Below, piece after piece: positions 1 to 8,390 of a DNA stretch of 8,390 bases. The position numbers and the translations under genes are program-made. How positions within the stretch are numbered: position 1 is the stretch's first letter; the number at the start of each line of letters is the position of its first letter. This DNA is from an uncultured Muribaculaceae bacterium (lineage in GTDB: Bacteria > Bacillota_I > Bacilli_A > RF39 > UBA660). Location: positions 1-8,390 of the forward strand of contig CAYUEQ010000042.1 in the NCBI GenBank assembly GCA_964443805.1, written 5' to 3'. The notes under the pieces were generated by a model, which was not told where the DNA came from, did not search any database, and was given only the letters and a program-made list of their open reading frames with translations.

Positions 1-31
1 TAAAAACTTCTTTTATTATTATATTAAAGTT

Positions 32-40
32 TGTTATAAT
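32..40 (+). promoter_or_regulatory. Possible extended -10 promoter element (TGtTATAAT) upstream of the LtaS-family gene
   Basis: TGTTATAAT at 32-40, 24 nt upstream of the ATG at 65. No convincing -35, and the window edge limits context. Confidence 0.3.
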
Positions 41-64
41 AATAACAATAAGAAGGGATTTATA

Positions 65-2083
65 ATGAAAATAAAAATTAAAACATTATATCAAAATATC
101 GTTAAACAAATGATTTCTTTTGTAAGTACAAATAGATTATTTATTTTTTTTGTAATTTCTTCTCTTATTAGTTGTATGTTTTTAAGAGAATATACTATTG
201 GAAATCCATTTGATATAAAACCTTTTATAGTTGATTTAGCTATGATTCTTATAATAGGATCGTTTGGTTATTTAATTAAAGGGAAGAATCAATTTTATTA
301 TTTTTTTAGTTGGTCTATTGTAATAGCATTATTAAATATAATTAATTCAGTTTATTTTGTTTTTTATCAATCATTTACATCTTTTGGTTTATTAGAAACA
401 GTTGGTCAATTAAATACAGTTGGTGGATCAGTAGCAGAGAAATTGGAAACCATTCAATTTATTTATCTGTTGGCACCATTTTTACTTTATTATTTAAATT
501 ATAGTTTAAGTAAATGGAATTATTATAATCTACTTGAAAAGGTAGAAAAAGGAAAGAGAATGTTTGTATCAACTATATTAGTAGCATCTGTTTTAGTTGC
601 TATAACACTAGTTACAATGAAACCTCAAGACTATAGTCGTTTGACTAAACAGTGGGATAGATATTATTTAGTAGAACGTTTTGGTATTATTATGTATCAA
701 TTAAATGATTTAGTCCAAACAGTAACTCCTAGATTTAATTCTTTATTTGGTTATGAAGAAGCTGCAGAAGAATACAGAGTATTCTTTGAAGAAAAAGATC
801 AAGAAATAATAAAAAACAATAAATATACAAATAAATTTAAAGGCTATAATATTATTTTTGTTCATATGGAAAGTATTCAAACCTTTTTACTTGATTTAAG
901 TTTTAATGAAAAAGAAGTAATGCCTAATCTAAATAATATTATAGATAATGGGGTGTTTTTTAATAACTTCCATTCTCAAATAAGTATAGGTACCAGTTCA
1001 GACACTGAATTCACTTTATTAACATCCCTAATGCCTGCTCAATCAGGAACAGTCTTTGTTACTTATAGTGATCGTGAATACGTATCTATTCCTTCTTTAT
1101 TAACAGACAAAGGATACTATACATTTAGTACTCATGGTAATAAAGCAAATATGTGGAATAGAAATAATATGCATTATAACTTAGGTTACCAAGATATGTA
1201 CTTTGAACCAGAATTTGAATTAGATGAAGTAGTTAATTTAGGAATAACTGATAAGTCTTATTTTAGACAGTTAGTTCCTAAACTAGAAAAAATAGAAGAA
1301 GAACATGATTCATATATGGGAACTATTATTACATTATCAAATCATTCACCATTTTATAAAGGTGCTGAATTAACAGACTATGATTTAACTTATACAATAA
1401 CTTCAGATGAATTAGGAATGCCATTAGAAGAACCGATTATAAATCCATATTTAGAAGATACTAAATTAGGAGAATATATTAAAAGTTCTCACTATGCAGA
1501 TGAGGCATTAGGAGAATTTATAGAGATGATTAAAAATTCTGATAAGTTTGATAAAACACTATTTGTATTCTATGGAGATCATGATGCGAAGCTATCTCGT
1601 TCTGAATATAGACATTTTTATAACTATGATCCACAGACAAAGACATCAAAACATAAAGATGATATAGACTACGTTAATTACGACTACTATGCTCATGAAC
1701 TTAACAGAAGTGTACCTTTAGTCCTATGGACTAAGAACTCTTCTATAAAGGGTGAATTTAGCTATCCTATGGGTATGATAGATATAATGCCTACTATAGG
1801 TAATATGATAGATATAAGAAATAGATATAGTTTAGGAAATGATATATTTAATGTTAAAAATGATAATATAGTTGTATTCCCAAATGGAAACTTTCTAACT
1901 AGTAAAGTTTACTATAATAATTCTAAAGAAGAATATATTCCATTTACAACTGAACCAATAGATAAAAACTATATAACAAACATAAAAGAATATACAGATA
2001 AAAGATTAAAAATATCTAATGACATTATTGTTCATGATTTAATTAGAAAAGAAAGAGAAATATTAGAAGGAGTTATAAATTAA
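65..2083 (+). CDS. ltaS: LTA synthase family protein (polytopic N-terminus plus extracellular sulfatase/alkaline-phosphatase-superfamily domain)
   Basis: 672-aa uninterrupted ORF. The first ~190 aa form several hydrophobic segments. Then come LtaS/sulfatase-type motifs: FVHMESIQTF, GTSSDTEFTLLTSLMP (Thr nucleophile context), STHGN and FYGDHD (metal-binding). An AAGGGA Shine-Dalgarno-like sequence precedes the ATG. Confidence 0.88.
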   Translation: MKIKIKTLYQNIVKQMISFVSTNRLFIFFVISSLISCMFLREYTIGNPFDIKPFIVDLAMILIIGSFGYLIKGKNQFYYFFSWSIVIALLNIINSVYFVFYQSFTSFGLLETVGQLNTVGGSVAEKLETIQFIYLLAPFLLYYLNYSLSKWNYYNLLEKVEKGKRMFVSTILVASVLVAITLVTMKPQDYSRLTKQWDRYYLVERFGIIMYQLNDLVQTVTPRFNSLFGYEEAAEEYRVFFEEKDQEIIKNNKYTNKFKGYNIIFVHMESIQTFLLDLSFNEKEVMPNLNNIIDNGVFFNNFHSQISIGTSSDTEFTLLTSLMPAQSGTVFVTYSDREYVSIPSLLTDKGYYTFSTHGNKANMWNRNNMHYNLGYQDMYFEPEFELDEVVNLGITDKSYFRQLVPKLEKIEEEHDSYMGTIITLSNHSPFYKGAELTDYDLTYTITSDELGMPLEEPIINPYLEDTKLGEYIKSSHYADEALGEFIEMIKNSDKFDKTLFVFYGDHDAKLSRSEYRHFYNYDPQTKTSKHKDDIDYVNYDYYAHELNRSVPLVLWTKNSSIKGEFSYPMGMIDIMPTIGNMIDIRNRYSLGNDIFNVKNDNIVVFPNGNFLTSKVYYNNSKEEYIPFTTEPIDKNYITNIKEYTDKRLKISNDIIVHDLIRKEREILEGVIN

Positions 2084-2706
2084 TGAAAAAGAAACAAAAA
2101 ATAATAATTATTATAAGTATAACTTTAGTTTTGCTCGCAGTAACTTTAACAAGTTATCTAGTTTTAAAACCAAAAAAAGAAGATAAAGTAAAAACAATAA
2201 AAGTATTAGATAGCATTGAAGGATATGATTATAAATTAGAAGATAGAGATGGTATCTTATATCAAGACATATTCATGTTATTAAAATCATGTTTAGAAAA
2301 AGATGAAGTAGACTTTAGTGAATATGCTCAACTTATATCACAATTATTTATAATTGATTTATATACTATAGATAATAAAATAAATAAATATGATGTTGGT
2401 AGTGTAGATTTTATTCATCCAGAAGTAATTGATAATTACTCATTAAATGTTAGAGATACTCTTTATAGATATTTAGAGGACAATACAAACGATAAGAGAA
2501 CACAAACATTACCAGAAGTGACTGATATCGATATAACCAATACAGAAGAAATTGAGTATGATTACAACGATAAAACATATCCAGCTTTTGAAATAGATCT
2601 AGAATGGTCTTATAAGAAAGATTTAGGTTATGATAAAGATGGAACTGTTATAGTAGTTAAACAAAATGAAATGTTATACATAATTGAAAAAAAAGATGTT
2701 AAGTAA
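2083..2706 (+). CDS. Hypothetical membrane-anchored protein (single N-terminal TM, acidic extracytoplasmic region), translationally coupled to the LtaS-family gene
   Basis: 207-aa ORF. Its ATG overlaps the upstream stop (TAATG at 2081-2085). AAGGAG at 2067-2072 lies 10 nt upstream. The N-terminus KKKQKIIIIISITLVLLAVTLTSYLVL looks like a signal anchor. I recognise no catalytic motif. Confidence 0.72.
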   Translation: MKKKQKIIIIISITLVLLAVTLTSYLVLKPKKEDKVKTIKVLDSIEGYDYKLEDRDGILYQDIFMLLKSCLEKDEVDFSEYAQLISQLFIIDLYTIDNKINKYDVGSVDFIHPEVIDNYSLNVRDTLYRYLEDNTNDKRTQTLPEVTDIDITNTEEIEYDYNDKTYPAFEIDLEWSYKKDLGYDKDGTVIVVKQNEMLYIIEKKDVK

Positions 2707-2744
2707 TAAAGATTAATTAATAAAAATAAAGCTTTTAATAAATT

Positions 2745-2779
2745 AGTTGTTGGAGTATAATACTCTAACAACTGGTTTA
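2745..2779 (+). terminator. Stem-loop downstream of the 207-aa ORF (weak intrinsic terminator; may overlap the tRNA promoter)
   Basis: AGTTGTTGGAGTA (2745-2757) pairs with TACTCTAACAACT (2761-2773): 13 bp including one G-U, loop TAA, followed only by GGTTTAT. A TATAAT hexamer at 2756-2761 lies inside the stem apex and could instead be the -10 for the tRNA. Confidence 0.45.
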
Positions 2780-2788
2780 TACATACAT

Positions 2789-2864
2789 GTCTCCGTAGCT
2801 CAGTCGGTAGAGCAACTGACTCTTAATCAGTGGGTCCACGGTTCAAGCCCGTGCGGGGACACCA
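2789..2864 (+). tRNA. tRNA-Lys (anticodon CTT), CCA encoded
   Basis: 76-nt cloverleaf read by hand. Acceptor GTCTCCG/CGGGGAC (one G-U). D arm GCTC-AGTCGGTA-GAGC. Anticodon stem ACTGA/TCAGT with loop CTCTTAA (anticodon CTT). Variable loop GGGTC. T arm CACGG-TTCAAGC-CCGTG. Discriminator A then CCA. Confidence 0.93.
2819..2864 (+). repeat. attL-like copy: 3' 46 nt of tRNA-Lys, repeated at 6311-6356
   Basis: ACTCTTAATCAGTGGGTCCACGGTTCAAGCCCGTG (2819-2853) is identical to 6311-6345. The next 11 nt, CGGGGACACCA versus TGAGGATACCA, match at 8 of 11 positions. Confidence 0.85.
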
Positions 2865-2878
2865 AGTTGATATTTAAG

Positions 2879-2908
2879 AGATGATTTATAATAAATTATC
2901 TTTTTTTT
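2879..2908 (+). terminator. Rho-independent terminator after tRNA-Lys
   Basis: AGATGATTTA (2879-2888) pairs with TAAATTATCT (2892-2901): 10 bp with one G-U, loop TAA, followed by a T7 run (2902-2908). Confidence 0.7.
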
Positions 2909-2919
2909 GTATCGAAATA

Positions 2920-2948
2920 TAGCAGTTTTTGGAAATTGATGATATAAT
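2920..2948 (+). promoter_or_regulatory. Candidate promoter of the PHP-ATPase operon (extended -10 TGATATAAT)
   Basis: TGATATAAT at 2940-2948. There is a weak -35-position hexamer TAGCAG at 2920-2925 (17-nt spacer). It lies 65 nt upstream of the ATG at 3013. Confidence 0.4.
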
Positions 2949-2962
2949 TAAGACAGATTGAG

Positions 2963-2994
2963 CAGTATTAAATCTTATTTTAATGCTGTTTTTT
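2963..2994 (+). terminator. Terminator-like hairpin plus T-tract in the 5' leader of the PHP-ATPase gene (possible attenuator)
   Basis: CAGTATTAAA (2963-2972) pairs with TTTAATGCTG (2979-2988): 10 bp with one G-U, 6-nt loop TCTTAT, then TTTTTT (2989-2994). It sits between the candidate -10 and the GGAGG RBS at 3001-3005. Confidence 0.45.
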
Positions 2995-3012
2995 ATAATA
3001 GGAGGTTTTTAA

Positions 3013-5508
3013 ATGAATAATGATAAAAATGATATTAATAATGTTTTGAAAAAAATATCTATTTGGAATAAATGGGATTTACACATACATACCCCAGTGA
3101 CAAATAATATGGTACAAAATGATTATAAAAATCCTAATTTGTTTTCCCCATCAGAATTTGTAACTAAAATGTATGCTAACGATATTAAGCTTGGCGTTAT
3201 CACTGACCACAATGTATTTGATTCGAATCAATTTAAACTTTTAATAACGGAAATTGAAGAAAGAAATAGAAAAGAAAATAAATTTCTTACATTATTGCCT
3301 GGAGTAGAATTAAACGTGAGTTTTCCCAATGAACAAGAGGATTCAATCCATTTTATACTTATATTTGATGATAAGGAAGATTTAAATAAAATTGAAAAAG
3401 CGATTGAAGATTTAAACTCTAAGTCAGGTTTTACAAAAAACAATCCAAAAGATGCAAGTATAGAACAAATAACCGAAGCTTTTTGTAAATTTAATTATAT
3501 AGTTAGTATACATTTAGGCAAATCATCAAACAGTCCAAAAGATGATAATTACGAGGAATTTTTAAAATTATATGTAGGAGGTTACATTGATGTATGTGAA
3601 AATAATCCTGGTAACAAAATTAAAAATAAGGTCTATTTAGAAAATAAAGTTCAAGAATTAACTGGCGACAGAAAAGACTCTCTATTTATAGTAGGAAGTG
3701 ATAATCACGATATAAGTAATTATCCAATGTGCGAAAATAATCCTACCCCACCTAAAATCACTTTTTATAAAGCGATTCCATCTTTTGAAGGTTTAAAAAT
3801 GGTTATTACAGAATATTCCAGAATATATAACAGTGATAGTAATTCATTACCAGATTATATAAATTCAACTAACGATATCACTAAAATTGAAGCTTTAAGA
3901 ATAGAAGGAACTGGATTCAATAATACTGATATATATTTTGGTAGAGAATTAAATTCGATTATAGGAGCTCGAACAAGTGGTAAAAGTTTGTTAATTAACA
4001 TATTAAAATATGCTTTATCAAATGCCTATGATGAGAGTAAATATGAAAACTATATATCAAATCTAAGAGTTAAAATTAAAACATTTGACGATAAAATTTT
4101 TAAAGACAATAGCTCTGTTCAAATAGAAGTTTTTGACCAAAATAGATTAATGGAAGAATTTGATAAATCAAAAAATAAAACAGATTTTTTTAAGGATACC
4201 TATATTTCTAAGACATTCGATGATTTGACAATACAGCAAAAGATTATTAAAGATTCGTTTGAAACTGAGATATCACAAGAGACAGATTTTTTAAACAAAC
4301 TGGAGCAATTAAAAATTTCCATTGATTCATTTAAACTTCCCAATGTTTATTTAAAAAGCTATATAAATTTGGGTAAAAATACCGATGATATGTCAAAGTT
4401 TTATTTAAAAGTTATTGAAACAAAGAAATTCGAAAATATTTTAACCAATTATGAAGAAAAAGAAATTTATTTAAAGACTTCCATTGATTCACTAAACACT
4501 ATAATTGAAAATGATAAATATGAATTTATAAGTAATGAAACTTCGCTTATATTAAAAAAATTGATAGAAGAATTTGAAGAAAAATTAGAAAATGTAGAAA
4601 AAAAATTGAAGAGTATAAAAGCGATTAAATTACTTAATATAACTCAATACAAACCATTTGAAGTGGATGAAAAATTCTACGATTCTCATAAAAGTTTTCT
4701 AAAAAATGTTGGTTCGATTGCTAAAATTAGAGCTAAATTAAAAAAAATCGAAAATTCTTCAACATTGTTTAAGAATAGAAAATTTAAAGTGAATAATGAA
4801 GAAAAATATGAAAAAACTAAATTAGTGCAAGAATTTACTTTTATTTGTTCCATAGATTATGATGTTAATTTTTTAACTAAAGATGCTGACCCAAAACATA
4901 TTGTAGAAAAATGTTTCTATGCCGATGATATAAAGGACGGTTGGATAGATTTAGTAAAAAAAGTATTCTTGAAAAAACTAAAAACTGAAAGTTTATTTAA
5001 AAATAGTAATACTGTGGATTCTATAGTTCAAGAAATATTAAAAGAGATACCTAAACCATATAAAACCATTGTTGATTCTAAAGGTATAGACATCAACAAC
5101 ACCTCTCCAGGTAATAGAGCATCCATACTAATAACAGTAATTTTAGAAAATCAAGAAAATAAAATATTGATTATAGACCAACCAGAAGATAATTTAGATA
5201 GTAAGTTTATCTATAATGAAATTGTCTCGAGACTTAAAACCTTAAAAACCACAAGACAAATATTTTTGGTTACTCATAATGCTAATATTGTAGTTAATTC
5301 TGATAGTGAAAATGTAATTTGTTGTAAAAATATTAATAATAAGATATCTTATGAGTATGGTGCTATTGAGTATTCAAAAAAAATATTTGAAAATTATAAT
5401 ATGAAAGAATTTATTTTGGATAATTTGGAAGGAACCGAAAAAGCATTTAAGACAAGAAGTGAGAAATACTTTTTGAAAGGAGTTGAATTAAATGATAATC
5501 ACAATTGA
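3013..5508 (+). CDS. PHP-domain phosphoesterase fused to a split ABC/SMC-like ATPase with a long coiled-coil-like insert (candidate single-protein defence nuclease-ATPase)
   Basis: 831-aa ORF; GGAGG lies 7 nt before the ATG. PHP motifs: DLHIHT (H24, H26; nt 3082-3090), ITDHN (D65-H66), PGVELN, IHFI, SIHLG, GSDNHD (D230, H232). ATPase motifs: Walker A GARTSGKS (aa 318-325, nt 3964-3987), signature-like TSPGNRAS (aa 697-704), Walker B ILIIDQPEDNLD (aa 718-729, nt 5164-5199), H-loop LVTHNAN (H755). Between Walker A and the signature motif lie ~370 aa of K/E/I/L/N-rich, heptad-like sequence. Confidence 0.88.
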   Translation: MNNDKNDINNVLKKISIWNKWDLHIHTPVTNNMVQNDYKNPNLFSPSEFVTKMYANDIKLGVITDHNVFDSNQFKLLITEIEERNRKENKFLTLLPGVELNVSFPNEQEDSIHFILIFDDKEDLNKIEKAIEDLNSKSGFTKNNPKDASIEQITEAFCKFNYIVSIHLGKSSNSPKDDNYEEFLKLYVGGYIDVCENNPGNKIKNKVYLENKVQELTGDRKDSLFIVGSDNHDISNYPMCENNPTPPKITFYKAIPSFEGLKMVITEYSRIYNSDSNSLPDYINSTNDITKIEALRIEGTGFNNTDIYFGRELNSIIGARTSGKSLLINILKYALSNAYDESKYENYISNLRVKIKTFDDKIFKDNSSVQIEVFDQNRLMEEFDKSKNKTDFFKDTYISKTFDDLTIQQKIIKDSFETEISQETDFLNKLEQLKISIDSFKLPNVYLKSYINLGKNTDDMSKFYLKVIETKKFENILTNYEEKEIYLKTSIDSLNTIIENDKYEFISNETSLILKKLIEEFEEKLENVEKKLKSIKAIKLLNITQYKPFEVDEKFYDSHKSFLKNVGSIAKIRAKLKKIENSSTLFKNRKFKVNNEEKYEKTKLVQEFTFICSIDYDVNFLTKDADPKHIVEKCFYADDIKDGWIDLVKKVFLKKLKTESLFKNSNTVDSIVQEILKEIPKPYKTIVDSKGIDINNTSPGNRASILITVILENQENKILIIDQPEDNLDSKFIYNEIVSRLKTLKTTRQIFLVTHNANIVVNSDSENVICCKNINNKISYEYGAIEYSKKIFENYNMKEFILDNLEGTEKAFKTRSEKYFLKGVELNDNHN

Positions 5509-5737
5509 CAATAATAAAATTGTCATTCCCAACTACGGAGAATTTAATGAAGATGGTAGCGACTTTACAGATAAAAAACTTTTAGAAATACTTGATAAAA
5601 TAAAAAATAAGGAAACAATTACAGTAGACCCAAAACTAGTTGATGATGATAGAAAAAAATGCGAGTTAATTAAAGAAATCTTAGAAACTTATATAGTGAA
5701 TTATTTTGAAGATGATAGTAACGATAACGTAAAATAA
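5492..5737 (+). CDS. Small acidic hypothetical protein, translationally coupled to the PHP-ATPase gene
   Basis: 81-aa ORF. Its ATG at 5492 overlaps the last 17 nt of the upstream ORF. AAAGGAG at 5476-5482 lies 9 nt upstream. By my count about 20 of 81 residues are D/E, including the tail EDDSNDN. A terminator follows immediately. Confidence 0.62.
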   Translation: MIITIDNNKIVIPNYGEFNEDGSDFTDKKLLEILDKIKNKETITVDPKLVDDDRKKCELIKEILETYIVNYFEDDSNDNVK

Positions 5738-5769
5738 AGAAACATCAAATTTCAGATATTTCTTTTTTA
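5737..5769 (+). terminator. Rho-independent terminator of the PHP-ATPase/81-aa operon
   Basis: AAAGAAACATC (5737-5747) pairs with GATATTTCTTT (5756-5766) with one C/A mismatch, loop AAATTTCA. The 3' arm runs into a T-tract ending at 5769. Confidence 0.6.
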
Positions 5770-5960
5770 TTAAATATATTGGTAACTTTCTTATTCATTT
5801 ATGATTTATGTAAAAAAAAATTAAGTCTATAGTTGAGCAATAACTTGTCTTAAATGTTTACTAATGATTGATGATTATCAAACTATTATATTTGTTTTAA
5901 TAATATATGATGTGATAAGATATAATATATATATTTTAAAATGAAAGGAGGAACGCTTGT

Positions 5961-6161
5961 ATGGGTCAAGCTAAAAGACAATTAGCGGAACAGGAGCAAA
6001 AGCGAATCAATAAATTAGAAGGTTATAGAAAACATCTTCATAATGAAAGCACATATGTTATGGACTGCCCTTATTGTTGTAATGCGCTTAGCAAATATGA
6101 TATGCAAAAAGATGATTGTCTTCATTGTGGTTATCCACTTAATTTCAGCGATGAAGACTAA
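5961..6161 (+). CDS. Small zinc-ribbon protein (CxxC...CxxC), function unknown
   Basis: 66-aa ORF. AAAGGAGGA at 5944-5952 lies 8 nt before the ATG. It has a basic, helical-looking N-terminus (QAKRQLAEQEQKRINKLEGYRKHL), then CPYC (aa 36-39) and CLHC (aa 53-56). The ORF is visibly richer in G+C than its surroundings. Confidence 0.62.
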   Translation: MGQAKRQLAEQEQKRINKLEGYRKHLHNESTYVMDCPYCCNALSKYDMQKDDCLHCGYPLNFSDED

Positions 6162-6310
6162 ATCACATTCTTATACAGACAGAAGAACCATTCTGTGTGA
6201 TGGACGATAGTAGAGTTGTACAAGGAGGCATGATTATGAAGAGTAAGTTAAGACAAGAAGATTATAAACAATTATAGTAAAATAATAAGTAGTAATATTT
6301 GCTTGTAAAC

Positions 6311-6356
6311 ACTCTTAATCAGTGGGTCCACGGTTCAAGCCCGTGTGAGGATACCA
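6311..6356 (+). repeat. attR-like partial tRNA-Lys copy (3' 46 nt; anticodon loop through CCA; non-functional fragment)
   Basis: Matches 2819-2864 (35 nt identical, then 8 of 11). It lacks the 5' acceptor strand, the D arm and the 5' anticodon stem, and its acceptor 3' strand is mutated (TGAGGAT versus CGGGGAC). Confidence 0.85.
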
Positions 6357-6367
6357 ATTATTTGATT

Positions 6368-7354
6368 TTAGAAGTTATTACTTAGAACTTTTTTATTTAT
6401 TGACCTAATTTTATTATTTTTAAGTTTATCTTTAATTTTTTTTTGTATACATTTATATTTACTTTCGTCAAATATTTGAGCAGTAAATATTAATCCTAAT
6501 AAACTTTGTAATTCTTTTTCATTATAGTCTTCTTGTTTTAATTTTTTTGCTATCTTGTATTTAATTTTATTGGGTATAACTAATTTTTTGTTTTTTGATA
6601 TTATACATCCAGTTATTTTCTTAAAGTCGTTCGTATAATAACTTTTTGTTTTACTCATATTTATGATATGGCAATGTCTTATTACTACACTATTTATTTG
6701 TGATATTAAAAACTTTGGTATAGGAATATCACTTGATATTGTAATATCATCAACATATATTGATATTATACAATTATTATTTTTAGCAAGAAGTTCTATT
6801 TCTTCAAACATATCTATATTTGCTAAATATGACATTATGCTACTTATAGGTGAGCCTGTAGGTAAATGGTTTAATGATTTTATATTCATATCTGTAATAA
6901 AATCATTAATTTCATTAGTTGTTATTTGCTTTAATGAAACAGTAGATAAGTCTGTTAATATTTTAGCAATATCAGAATTAACTTTTAACTTTTGTTTATA
7001 AAAGTTATAAATCATTTCTCTATGAGTATTTGGAAAAAATTTTGACATATCTATTTTTAAAAAATATTTAGAATTTATATGATATAGAGCATTATCAATA
7101 TATGATTTTCCAGGTACACCAGAAAACACATTATCCTGATAATCTAATTCACAAAGATAGTTTTTTATTTTTCTTTGAATTAATTTGATATCAACATTTG
7201 GGTTTTCTATCAACCTTTTTTTTCTATTTTTTTTATCTATAAATGGTCTGTATTTTACATTGTAACTATTAAAATTTTTGACATTATAATTTAGCAAGGT
7301 CTTTAAATCCCTTTTTCTTTTGACATTATAAAGTCTACATTTCTCATATTTCAT
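6368..7354 (-). CDS. Retron-type reverse transcriptase
   Basis: 328-aa ORF; GAGGT lies 7 nt before the ATG. RT motifs in order: RLIENPNVDIKLIQRKI (motifs 1/2), retron-typical NALYH (NAxxH, nt 7079-7093), FLKIDMSKFFPN (motif A), LPTGSPISSIMSYL (motif B), IYVDDITIS (YVDD, nt 6746-6757), INMSKTK (motif D), and retron-typical KKITGCIIS (xTG, nt 6608-6616). By eye it is collinear with Ec86 RT (NATPH / LNIDLEDFF / LPQGAPSSP / YADD / KVTGLVIS). Confidence 0.88.
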   Translation of the reverse strand: MKYEKCRLYNVKRKRDLKTLLNYNVKNFNSYNVKYRPFIDKKNRKKRLIENPNVDIKLIQRKIKNYLCELDYQDNVFSGVPGKSYIDNALYHINSKYFLKIDMSKFFPNTHREMIYNFYKQKLKVNSDIAKILTDLSTVSLKQITTNEINDFITDMNIKSLNHLPTGSPISSIMSYLANIDMFEEIELLAKNNNCIISIYVDDITISSDIPIPKFLISQINSVVIRHCHIINMSKTKSYYTNDFKKITGCIISKNKKLVIPNKIKYKIAKKLKQEDYNEKELQSLLGLIFTAQIFDESKYKCIQKKIKDKLKNNKIRSINKKVLSNNF

Positions 7355-7370
7355 ATCATTACCTCACAAA

Positions 7371-7424
7371 ACAATTACTTTTGTAAAAATATCAATTTGA
7401 TAATATACTTACAAAAATAATTGT
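7371..7424 (-). other. 54-nt imperfect hairpin filling the gap between the 67-aa ORF and the RT gene
   Basis: ACAATTACTTTTGTAA (7371-7386) is the reverse complement of TTACAAAAATAATTGT (7409-7424) with one mismatch. Inside the loop is a nested 5-bp stem TATCA/TGATA (7390-7394 with 7398-7402). On the minus strand only UUUGUG follows the stem. Confidence 0.55.
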
Positions 7425-7427
7425 TAA

Positions 7428-7631
7428 TTATTTAGTATGTTTTTTTATTCTCTTAGTAATTTGTTTGAATACTTGGTACCCGAAACAAACAAATACTAAG
7501 ATTTTAACGTTTAATTTTACATTAAAGTCTAGTGAAAAATCAAAACCGATACTAGCATTAAGTGTCAGTCCTAAAGATAAAGTTATCAGATATTTATAAT
7601 CGTGTATAAATTCTTTTAATTTGGATACCAT
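7428..7631 (-). CDS. Small hydrophobic protein (one or two membrane segments, basic C-terminal tail), first gene of the RT operon
   Basis: 67-aa ORF. A strong AAGGAGG lies 9 nt upstream of the ATG. Hydrophobic stretches are YLITLSLGLTLNASIGF (aa 14-30) and KILVFVCFGYQVF (aa 42-55). The tail is KQITKRIKKHTK. It is on the same strand as the RT and 73 nt upstream of it. Confidence 0.58.
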   Translation of the reverse strand: MVSKLKEFIHDYKYLITLSLGLTLNASIGFDFSLDFNVKLNVKILVFVCFGYQVFKQITKRIKKHTK

Positions 7632-7640
7632 TATGATATA

Positions 7641-7962
7641 CCTCCTTCTTTGTAATTTTGGACACTTTAGCTTTATTCCGCGGATAAAACCTAGTGCGCC
7701 CCATATTCCAAATCACAGGAGATACTATGCTAGACACTTAATATATAATTAACAATTTCCTGCCCCATACTTAATTGATATAGAGCTTGATTATACTTTT
7801 TCAATAAACAGTATAACTTACATCATTATTAATTATAATAATATAGTATGTATTGGTTAGAAAACTACTGCCGTCAAAAAGTATTGCGAAGATATAATCT
7901 TCTCGCTAATAAATTAGCCATACATGGAGCTTTGGCATAATGCCTTGAGCACCTTTAGAACT
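7641..7962 (-). ncRNA. Candidate structured non-coding leader of the RT operon (possible retron msr-msd-like ncRNA; boundaries uncertain)
   Basis: ~320 nt with no plausible ORF on either strand and visibly higher G+C than its surroundings (about 44% by my count over 7661-7730). A promoter-like element lies just upstream on the minus strand. Local hairpins: GGCA-taa-TGCC (7934-7944), GCTAA-taaa-TTAGC (7905-7918), GCGAAGAT-ata-ATCTT(ct)CGC (7886-7906), and an 11-bp bulged stem 7742-7752 with 7771-7782. I could not identify a convincing a1/a2 pairing. Confidence 0.35.
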
Positions 7963-7968
7963 AGTAAA

Positions 7969-7997
7969 ATCATATCATAAAAATTTATTTTCGACAA
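7969..7997 (-). promoter_or_regulatory. Candidate sigma-A-type promoter for the ncRNA/67-aa/RT transcription unit
   Basis: Read on the minus strand: -35 TTGTCG (7997-7992), 17-nt spacer, TGa-extended -10 TATGAT (7974-7969). The predicted start is near 7962. An alternative internal perfect TATAAT lies at 7795-7790 (minus strand). Confidence 0.4.
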
Positions 7998-8003
7998 ATA
8001 TTT

Positions 8004-8039
8004 AAAAAAGGTTACTAAACAATATTAGTTACCTTTTTT
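8004..8039. terminator. Bidirectional intrinsic terminator (A-tract, stem-loop, T-tract)
   Basis: AAAAAA (8004-8009). GGTTACTAA (8010-8018) pairs with TTAGTTACC (8025-8033) at 8 of 9 positions, loop ACAATA. TTTTTT follows (8034-8039). It insulates the RT module from the rightmost gene. Confidence 0.6.
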
Positions 8040-8140
8040 CTTTCTTTAAATAAGTCATTAAATAGATTATATCAAACTTAATTTTTTTTTAAAAAAACAA
8101 AACTATTTTATTTTTTTTTCTGTTTGATTCATAAATACTA

Positions 8141-8178
8141 ATCTGTTTTATCTTCAATATTTTTATATTAAAACAGAT
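8141..8178. other. Perfect 10-bp inverted repeat just downstream of the rightmost minus-strand gene
   Basis: ATCTGTTTTA (8141-8150) and TAAAACAGAT (8169-8178), with an 18-nt loop. On the plus strand it is followed by GTATTTTTTT; on the minus strand only by UAGUAUUUAU. It may be a weak terminator for the minus-strand gene. Confidence 0.35.
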
Positions 8179-8186
8179 GTATTTTT

Positions 8187-8390
8187 TTAATTATCATTAT
8201 TTGTTCCTTCAGGTGTTACTTCTGGAGGTAAAAATGTTTCACTTTCTTTATCTTCTGGAGTTTCTTCTTCCTCTTCATCTTCTTTTTCAATTGGCTCTAA
8301 CGTCTTAGGTTTTTCTTTTACTTCTTCATCATTTATAGGAGTATCCACTTTATCTTCAACTTCTGTTTTTTGTTTTCTACTTGTATCTAC
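8187..8390 (-). CDS. 3' end of a minus-strand gene running off the window; acidic, low-complexity C-terminal tail
   Basis: Not in the supplied ORF track because it is partial. My own translation of the reverse complement in the frame of 8390 gives 67 sense codons: VDTSRKQKTEVEDKVDTPINDEEVKEKPKTLEPIEKEDEEEEETPEDKESETFLPPEVTPEGTNNDN, then TAA (8189-8187). The purine-rich codon bias is consistent, but no domain is recognisable. Confidence 0.45.
   Translation of the reverse strand, partial: VDTSRKQKTEVEDKVDTPINDEEVKEKPKTLEPIEKEDEEEEETPEDKESETFLPPEVTPEGTNNDN

Follow-up and report, generated by a model that had tools for sequence, protein, structure and literature searches.

What is the stretch of non-coding DNA that precedes a reverse transcriptase (RT) gene on the minus strand of contig CAYUEQ010000042.1, and how far does the RNA it encodes extend? 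The stretch analyzed (8,390 nt, positions 1 to 8,390 of the contig, referred to here as the window) carries, in order of transcription, a leader (7641–7962), a 67-residue open reading frame (ORF) for a small protein (SP; 7428–7631, preceded by the Shine-Dalgarno (SD) sequence AAGGAGG), and the RT gene (6368–7354). The original prediction, made from the letters of the window, regarded the leader as a noncanonical msr-msd candidate of a retron or, failing that, as another RT-associated noncoding RNA (ncRNA) or a cis-regulatory leader. Comparison with homologous loci indicates that the leader is most probably the noncoding part, the first two-thirds from the 5′ end, of the hybrid RNA (hyRNA) of a type VI retron, in a Firmicute form that lacks the usual helix-turn-helix (HTH) gene. 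Hybrid RNA as a kind of element is already known from preprints of 2025–2026; the HTH-less form with a switch-like hairpin is new. Both suggestions of the original prediction, a nonclassical retron ncRNA and a possible cis-regulatory leader, are thereby supported by the RT type, covariation, and type VI layout, with the exception of one proposed stem that proved wrong. The functional RNA also reaches beyond 7641, running through the 67-residue ORF, which had not been linked to the RNA before, to approximately position 7366.

Several properties set the leader apart, as had been recognized from the sequence. Its G+C content is 0.326 compared with 0.249 for the window (mean 24.9%), a value reached by 1.7% of 322-nt windows, with the 5′ domain at 0.39, the 3′ regulatory part at 0.37, and a long middle hairpin that is AT-rich at 0.21. 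Neither strand holds an ORF longer than 47 residues, and no credible ORF is present. A consensus scan recovers the minus-strand promoter already proposed (7969–7997), consisting of a −35 element TTGTCG at 7997–7992, a 17-nt spacer, and an extended −10 element, TG-a-TATGAT, at 7977–7969. The 5′ end of the RNA is conserved and predicted at about 7962; homologues possess a TGnTATAAT box equally far from it. The leader folds better than shuffled sequences (z = −4.2).

The RT itself offers the first indication of the system involved. The 328-residue protein matches Pfam RVT_1 (2e-14) and the PADLOC profile RT_VI (1.1e-67), the latter with 226 bits compared to 113 bits for the next family, and its translation displays the motifs NALYH, ITG (within KKITGCII), and YVDD. 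Retron RTs are characterized by NAXXH in region X, a VTG-type triplet in region Y, and YxDD (Mestre 2020). Related Firmicute RT families are also recognized as RT_VI at 202–240 bits, with the canonical loci of Aeromonas and Serratia reaching 316–335 bits. By profile score, the RT belongs with type VI, a group within clade 3 of the retron RTs. Type VI was defined with an adjacent Cro/C1-type HTH protein (cluster 2_1, 91–110 residues) that is usually encoded just upstream of the RT or overlapping it (Mestre 2020); approximately 78% of type VI RT-clade entries possess the HTH and approximately 22% do not (Garcia-Rodriguez et al. 2026, 10.64898/2026.04.27.721009).

Two type VI systems provide the frame of comparison. 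Retron-Vpa2 from Vibrio parahaemolyticus produces a hybrid RNA of ∼470 nt that combines the msr-msd with the coding sequence (CDS) of a toxic SP, whose ribosome-binding site (RBS) is held in a stem; a segment after the SP gene pairs back to the msr-msd arm in an a1/a2-like fashion (Zhang et al. 2025, 10.1101/2025.10.22.683967). The same study reports that multicopy single-stranded DNA (msDNA) accumulates upon phage infection and is required for SP translation, that the complementary DNA (cDNA) maps upstream of the SP, that the HTH protein represses reverse transcription, and that the cDNA could hybridize to the regulatory arm by means of a 7-nt direct repeat, one copy of which lies there and the other in the msd (10.1101/2025.10.22.683967). 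In Retron-Sen3, of the cl2075 lineage, the ncRNA lies within ∼280 nt of the SP and an inverted repeat, IR1–IR2, surrounds the SP gene; the stem-loop equivalent to that of Retron-Vpa2 is reverse transcribed, and the HTH protein acts as an antitoxin (10.64898/2026.04.27.721009).

To place the window among its relatives, a profile scan of species-representative genomes was used, which retrieved 40 loci, all from gut metagenome-assembled genomes (MAGs) of Bacilli, Clostridia, and Christensenellaceae; one (L040) lacks upstream sequence, leaving 39 genome loci for examination. The family of the window itself, family A, was enlarged to 28 distinct RNA sequences by a metagenome motif scan and look-ups of RT homologues, such that the homologues come from gut MAGs and metagenomes. 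An ORF of 59–79 residues with a GGAGG SD sequence ends 22–80 nt before the RT in all 39 genome loci and in all added metagenome loci, and no gene intervenes between this ORF and the RT in any of the 39. The SPs comprise four unrelated sequence families that track RT similarity, yet all are basic with one hydrophobic segment each. Joint inheritance of leader, SP, and RT is seen in more than 60 loci. The flanks of family-A loci share nothing with the window besides these three, and the conserved unit is therefore promoter–leader–SP–RT, about 1.65 kb in length. Scans of viral contigs with two conserved motifs yielded no matches and hence no evidence of phage carriage. The conservation and covariation that the original prediction had proposed to look for upstream of homologous RTs are both present, the leader aligning well among homologues at its two ends and poorly in its middle.

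Two long-range helices with compensatory changes, H1 proposed by RNAalifold and IR1:IR2 by a repeat search, tie the leader to the SP gene. The first, H1, pairs the predicted 5′ end of the RNA (AGUUCUAAAG, 7953–7962) with 7576–7567, which correspond to SP codons 19–22. The second pairs IR1 (AAUUGUUAAUUAUA, 7744–7757) with IR2 (AAUAAUUAACAAUU, 7419–7432), which overlaps the SP stop codon at 7430–7428. Both were assessed in an arms-only alignment anchored on promoter distance, codon alignment, and flanking invariant motifs. For H1, 99% of the alignment cells pair and three of the ten pairs are compensatory (L005, L058, and L065), with changes that include G–C to U–A. For IR1:IR2, every one of the 14 distinct rows retains the 14 base pairs, of which one is compensatory and four vary by wobble only; A–U is replaced by G–C in L058 and L065, and L066 displays the G–U intermediate. 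L057, L058, and L065 were retrieved only after both helices had been defined, and all ten H1 pairs and every IR1:IR2 pair are intact in these three sequences. Taken jointly with a small 5′ hairpin, H3, the two helices show 99.0% standard pairs compared to 24–48% when the partners are slid by one to three columns, and seven pairs with changes on both sides compared to 0–1 after sliding, a result reached by one of 500 shuffles. The other three RT families carry an inverted repeat of 8–13 bp with wholly different sequence at the same two positions.

Upstream of IR1, the leader comprises a series of local hairpins, the first three of which are those already described in the original prediction at 7934–7944, 7905–7918, and 7886–7906. 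H2 (GGCA-UUA-UGCC, 7934–7944), supported by RNAalifold and homologue comparison, appears as GGAU...AUCC in most homologues, which amounts to two compensatory pairs, and is missing in L005, L057, L058, and L065. H3 (GCUAA-UUUA-UUAGC, 7905–7918) is supported by covariation, with compensatory changes at three of its five pairs (GUCAA/UUGAC, GCCAG/CUGGU, GCUAU/AUAGC, and GUCAG/CUGAC). The stem of H4 (GAGAAGA-UUAUA-UCUUCGC, 7886–7904) is invariant in all family-A sequences and for that reason gives no covariation evidence; we infer that it is a candidate RT-recognition element of an msr-like domain. A further pair suggested by RNAalifold, GUGCU:AGCAC (7952–7948 with approximately 7732–7728), was left out, being invariant in the main group and lost in L057, L058, and L065.

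Between H4 and IR1 lies H5 (7793–7884), a long imperfect hairpin of variable sequence identified by folding of homologues. It forms one closed hairpin of 89–134 nt in 24 of 24 distinct homologues (z = −1.5 to −5.1), even as its sequence differs in almost every lineage and hardly aligns. An msd is typically recognized by just this combination of a long variable-sequence hairpin and conserved flanks (Mestre 2020), and the position of H5 matches those of the msd stem-loop of Retron-Vpa2 and SL3 of Retron-Sen3. By this analogy, H5 may be an msd-like template for reverse transcription.

The order of these hairpins raises the question of whether the leader is simply a classical msr-msd closed by an a1/a2 pair within ∼7630–7980. 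Three msr-like hairpins followed by a long variable hairpin, upstream of a retron RT, is indeed the arrangement of the classical element from Ec86 (Retron-Eco1). However, no conserved inverted repeat flanks 7630–7980. The two 9-bp AT-rich pairs that had been offered as a1/a2 are not conserved features in homologues, and in the closing pairs that are conserved, the second arm lies at 7576–7567 or at 7432–7419. The a1/a2-like pair had escaped the original prediction because IR1/IR2 (7757–7744 with 7432–7419) spans the SP gene, outside the region that was read. A branching G was sought in the likeness of UUAGCGAGAAG (7909–7899) to Ec86 UUAGCGAGAGG, the sequence around the Ec86 branching G, and was rejected, as the G is not conserved: G7906 of UUAGC gives way to UUGAC in most homologues. 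The element also returns no Rfam match and, unlike classical msr-msd RNAs, encloses an effector gene. A classical architecture is thus extremely unlikely, and the hybrid RNA remains the favored identity of the leader.

On the 3′ side of H5, the hairpin H6 (GCUCUAUA-loop-UAUGGGGC, 7762–7786) is conserved with variable loops and ends four bases before IR1. C and U alternate opposite G in its stem, and in L005 and L057 the stem has changed shape through compensatory substitutions. Its 3′ arm contains the first copy of the direct repeat TATGGGGC (plus-strand GCCCCATA), a duplication which the original prediction had recognized and which occurs in exactly two copies in the window (7762–7769 and 7698–7705, at −138 and −74 from the SP start). 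The placement of copy 1 differs from that first proposed: it pairs as the 3′ arm of H6 (7769–7762 with 7786–7779) instead of lying in the loop of an 11-bp bulged stem (7742–7752 with 7771–7782). The 11-bp stem has no comparative support and was rejected, given that its 5′ arm falls in the variable-sequence loop of homologues and its 3′ arm is IR1, which pairs elsewhere.

With 0.04 copies of TATGGGGC expected in the window, none of 200 shuffles gave two or more. Taken alone, however, a direct repeat of some 8-mer at a spacing of 45–110 nt is nothing unusual in a 260-nt stretch (p ∼ 0.33). The significance of the repeat consequently derives from its conservation, not from its mere occurrence. 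All family-A sequences share the core UGGGGC. The two bases preceding it differ in both copies in L005 (AG) and in L058 and L065 (GA), and in a single copy in L004 and L057. The other RT families have different G-rich repeats, such as ATGCGAAGG, AAGCGAGAGG, and TGCAAGGGGG, at about −135 and at −50 to −85 from the SP start, and GTGCAGGAG is replaced by GTACAGGAG in both copies.

Three side observations concern the repeat. The segment GCUCCA at 7925–7930 (AGCCCCA in most homologues in the family-A alignment) is complementary to the UGGGGC core of both copies; either it or the 5′ arm of H6, as a second "anti-repeat", could serve as an alternative partner for repeat 2. In several loci of other families (L014, L016, L020, L021, L027, L030, and L034–L036), the repeats are purine-rich and SD-like (GCAGGAG, GAAGGAG, GCGAAGG, and GGGAG), and such repeats might compete for the anti-SD instead of, or besides, binding cDNA. 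Lastly, an unrelated-looking metagenome contig (Ga0172379_10185131, locus L043) carries CTGGGGCAGGAAATTGTTAATTATTAT at ∼405–435; it has 27 bases identical to the window, covering repeat 1 and IR1 and nothing else, and was left out of the alignments.

The second copy of the repeat is located in the regulatory arm (7637–7724), in which an anti-SD sequence, UAUCUCC (7724–7718), pairs with the SD of the SP gene, GGAGGUA (7645–7639). Repeat 2 (7705–7698) occupies the 5′ strand of this arm and is half paired, through GGGCGC (7701–7696) with GUGUCC (7665–7660). RNAalifold analysis of 17 sequences finds CUCC:GGAG invariant and the adjacent A–U pair changed to G–C in six. The arm folds with z = −3.4, and the SD has an unpaired probability of 0.00–0.17 in six full-length homologues, such that it is predicted to be sequestered. 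The ORF that it would control is called as a gene in public assemblies and is conserved upstream of every homologous RT. Its product is a small basic hydrophobic protein with a net charge of +7 and one hydrophobic segment. It has no sequence similarity to the two proteobacterial SPs with which it was compared. By analogy with Retron-Vpa2 and Retron-Sen3, it is presumed to be a toxic effector.

A tightly sequestered SD, a 5′ end that pairs inside the CDS, and an inverted repeat that encloses the gene might be expected of a leader that serves only as cis-acting translational control of a small toxin, in the manner of a type I toxin. The layout of H1 and the inverted repeat resembles that of folding-controlled toxin mRNAs such as hok mRNA. 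Six type VI retrons without detectable msDNA in a census would also accord with a function that does not involve reverse transcription. Yet the leader travels with both SP and RT among unrelated flanks in those more than 60 loci, it holds the variable hairpin between conserved elements that marks an msd (Mestre 2020), and the equivalent stem-loop is reverse transcribed in both Retron-Vpa2 and Retron-Sen3. Furthermore, a purely cis-acting fold leaves the likeness of the two repeat copies unexplained. We consider cis control as the sole function quite improbable. Likeness to folding-controlled toxin mRNAs and toehold-type riboregulators, namely a locked SD, long-range pairing around a toxin gene, and a short single-stranded motif open to a complementary nucleic acid, is one of mode of working and not of family membership; unlike in those riboregulators, the presumed trigger is DNA reverse transcribed from the same RNA, not an antisense RNA.

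The 3′ end of the proposed hybrid RNA is marked by a terminator-like or attenuator hairpin followed by UUUU (7366–7425; 5′ arm from 7425, 3′ arm to 7370). Its 25 pairs include eight that are compensatory across 17 sequences (dG = −21.3 kcal/mol, z = −6.3), and homologues have a U-run of 4–8 after it. The first seven nucleotides of this hairpin, AACAAUU, are the last seven of IR2, which renders the hairpin and the full IR1:IR2 helix mutually exclusive. That both pairings of AACAAUU are under selection suggests a switch that would regulate the RT by way of read-through or translation. In RT families B and C (L008–L020), the 3′ arm of the long post-SP hairpin includes the RT ribosome-binding site, as in AAAAGGGGGAAUU, and there the hairpin probably controls RT translation rather than termination.

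The same hairpin invites the question of whether the true msd is in fact this 56-nt SP–RT element (7425–7370), with H5 being a structural spacer. It lies directly upstream of the RT, where the classical msd sits, and it is strong and conserved, as its z-score attests. Its stem, however, is highly conserved, unlike msd stems, with only the loop varying. The U-run after it is terminator-like, in families whose SP–RT spacer is 22–43 nt long the hairpins at this place are small (dG −4 to −12 kcal/mol) and lack the 25-bp stem, and the cDNA of Retron-Vpa2 maps upstream of the SP. An msd at this position is very unlikely, which leaves H5 as the candidate template.

The 73 nt between SP and RT (7355–7427) consist of this hairpin where canonical type VI loci carry the HTH gene. 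No ORF of the window matches HTH_VI in PADLOC, and Pfam and NCBIfam scans likewise revealed no HTH near the retron; nor does the upstream gene, which is complete in locus L059 (97% identical), encode an HTH. A phmmer search of all ORFs of all loci with four HTH queries found HTH proteins only in five family-A loci and in L025. In those five (L002, L007, L052, L053, and L056), the HTH_VI-like ORF sits upstream of the hybrid-RNA promoter; that of L002 (1559–1798) encodes 79 residues of XRE type and matches PADLOC HTH_VI at 2.5e-8. Within the family-A clade, the HTH thus appears to be optional and displaced.

The missing HTH bears on whether the system could operate as Retron-Sen3 does, with constitutive single-stranded DNA and SP, posttranslational neutralization of the SP, and activation independent of msDNA-driven translation. 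Retron-Sen3 is a type VI system that behaves in this way and has a comparable ncRNA with IR1–IR2. That mode nevertheless needs the HTH antitoxin, and none is encoded in the operon or near enough to it, whether in the window or in L059; in addition, the SD is almost fully paired in the predicted folds of the six homologues, which argues for translational repression. A mode of this kind is improbable here.

Compared with the published description of Retron-Vpa2, the proposed hybrid RNA has much in common: a structured transcript that combines an msr-msd with the SP gene, an RBS in a stem, an inverted repeat that returns to the msr-msd arm, direct-repeat copies at the 3′ side of the msd and in the regulatory arm, and an RT of the same hidden Markov model family. 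The differences are that the window lacks an HTH gene, that its RNA is ∼600 nt rather than ∼470 nt, that repeat 1 occupies a stem arm (a loop in Retron-Vpa2), that the 5′ end pairs inside the SP CDS, that a terminator-like hairpin overlapping IR2 precedes the RT, and that the host is a gut Firmicute. Similarities with Retron-Sen3 include an ncRNA less than ∼300 nt upstream of the SP, a long stem-loop with a nonconserved middle, a sequestered RBS, and IR1 upstream of the SP with IR2 just after its stop codon. Retron-Sen3 differs in its gene order, SP-HTH-RT, with the HTH as antitoxin, and its IR1–IR2 displays no statistically significant covariation, whereas here one pair has changed on both sides and the whole helix is replaced between RT families.

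A canonical type VI locus was also analyzed, on the Aeromonas caviae plasmid LC735978 (L067; order SP-HTH-RT), which has the repeat ATTGGGGCGA at −146 and −88 and shares the core UGGGGC with the window. Its repeat 1 is likewise in a hairpin with IR1 directly after it, and IR2 directly follows the SP stop. Unlike the window, this locus is G+C-rich, encodes an HTH after the SP that overlaps the RT start, and has no terminator-like hairpin after the SP. The match in both layout and repeat core means that the layout of the window is that of the canonical type VI hybrid RNA.

These comparisons allow a mechanism to be proposed, largely by analogy with Retron-Vpa2. One transcript, from ∼7962 to ∼7366, would comprise H2–H4, H5, H6, IR1, the regulatory arm, the SP gene, IR2, and the terminator-like hairpin, with the RT gene next. 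The RT would copy H5 and H6 into single-stranded DNA, whose GCCCCATA segment, templated by repeat 1, complements repeat 2 and would bind it. As in Retron-Vpa2, cDNA accumulating during phage infection might then remodel the regulatory arm, permitting translation of the toxic SP and halting cell growth. Particular to this clade would be the absence of an HTH from the operon and the competition of the post-SP hairpin with IR1 for IR2, through which the hairpin may adjust the amount of transcription or translation that extends to the RT. We regard derepression by msDNA as a proposition for which the chances are about even.

A number of results weigh against the identity or the mechanism proposed. 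When repeat 2 was blocked or forced single-stranded in ViennaRNA for six homologues, the SD stayed shut (unpaired probability 0.00–0.17), and the derepression step is therefore without thermodynamic support. The published mechanisms cannot apply unchanged where the HTH, a repressor in Retron-Vpa2 and an antitoxin in Retron-Sen3, is absent. A branching G and a priming pair of the classical a1/a2 kind were both sought in the element, and neither was located. When the full window was compared with Rfam at E ≤ 10, the tRNA was the only match, with nothing in the leader or elsewhere in 7355–8000, and no curated model thus confirms the element. Single-sequence minimum free energy folds recover neither H1 nor IR1:IR2; their z-scores are strongly negative, but their long-range pairs differ from those with covariation support, and they were not used for the architecture. 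The arms-only alignment is author-curated, and the covariation comes from few independent lineages (the window with L059, L005, L057, L058 with L065, and the main group). Finally, H1 and IR1:IR2 cross, the order being 5′ end, IR1, SP codons, and IR2, which implies either a pseudoknot or two alternative states.

A more far-reaching possibility is that of a minimal type VI retron free of protein regulators, in which the RNA alone restrains the toxin as a two-state switch. IR2 would have two alternative partners: IR1, in which case the toxin gene is enclosed, and the 3′ arm of the terminator-like hairpin before the RT. Ribosomes finishing the SP would flip the switch, as the SP stop codon is inside IR2. 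If true, the RNA would need no HTH to link translation of the toxin and supply of the RT with cDNA synthesis. This proposal is tentative and, in our estimation, doubtful.

The surroundings of the retron contain a further candidate for defense. In plus-strand order, the window carries an LtaS-like sulfatase (65–2083, plus strand), an ORF with no assigned identity (2083–2706, plus strand), tRNA-Lys(CUU) (2789–2864), and a TrlF-family PHP/AAA ATPase (3013–5508, plus strand) accompanied by two small ORFs. The ATPase, a protein of 831 residues in the region 3013–5737, matches the NCBIfam TrlF-family AAA-like ATPase model above cutoff (1.1e-109) and, at its C-terminus, the Ppl anti-phage protein; an overlapping ORF of 81 residues follows. 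This gene adjoining the retron is probably a separate defense gene. A 47-nt direct repeat, 94% identical, occurs at 2819–2865 and 6311–6357, and its first copy is the 3′ end of tRNA-Lys(CUU). With the TrlF-family gene and the two small ORFs between the copies, the segment looks like an island integrated in the tRNA gene, the retron being directly beside the distal repeat.

Locus L059 is 97.4% identical to the window over 6418–8390. The identity ends about 17 codons before the RT stop (compared stretches: window 6368–6418 and L059 2248–2274), such that the C-terminal tails of the two RTs differ, and L059 has an ORF of 133 residues and a DUF4238 gene between the RT and the same tRNA end. On its other side, upstream of the leader, the retron is bordered by the promoter and by an AT-rich spacer that contains a hairpin terminator, beyond which lies the end of the upstream gene. 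The hairpin, AAAAAAGGUAACUAAUAUUGUUUAGUAACCUUUUUU at 8003–8036, was spotted by eye between runs of A and U. It probably terminates transcription in both directions and shields the retron promoter from the upstream gene; having fewer than three G–C pairs, it was not listed by the terminator scan.

The comparative set assembled here gives sequence-independent support for IR1:IR2, for pairing of the RNA 5′ end with the SP CDS, and for a direct repeat whose copies change together from one RT family to another. IR1:IR2, H1, and the repeat are accordingly concrete targets for mutagenesis, and the compact cassette could interest retron engineers working in Gram-positive hosts. For type VI retrons as a family, control of the toxin is known to differ between systems, msDNA derepressing translation in Retron-Vpa2 and the HTH being an antitoxin in Retron-Sen3, and both depend on the HTH. 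A widespread clade of gut Firmicutes that keeps the RT, the SP, and the RNA architecture in ∼1.65 kb without an HTH constitutes a natural test of which parts are essential, and it points to RNA structure as the core of the control.

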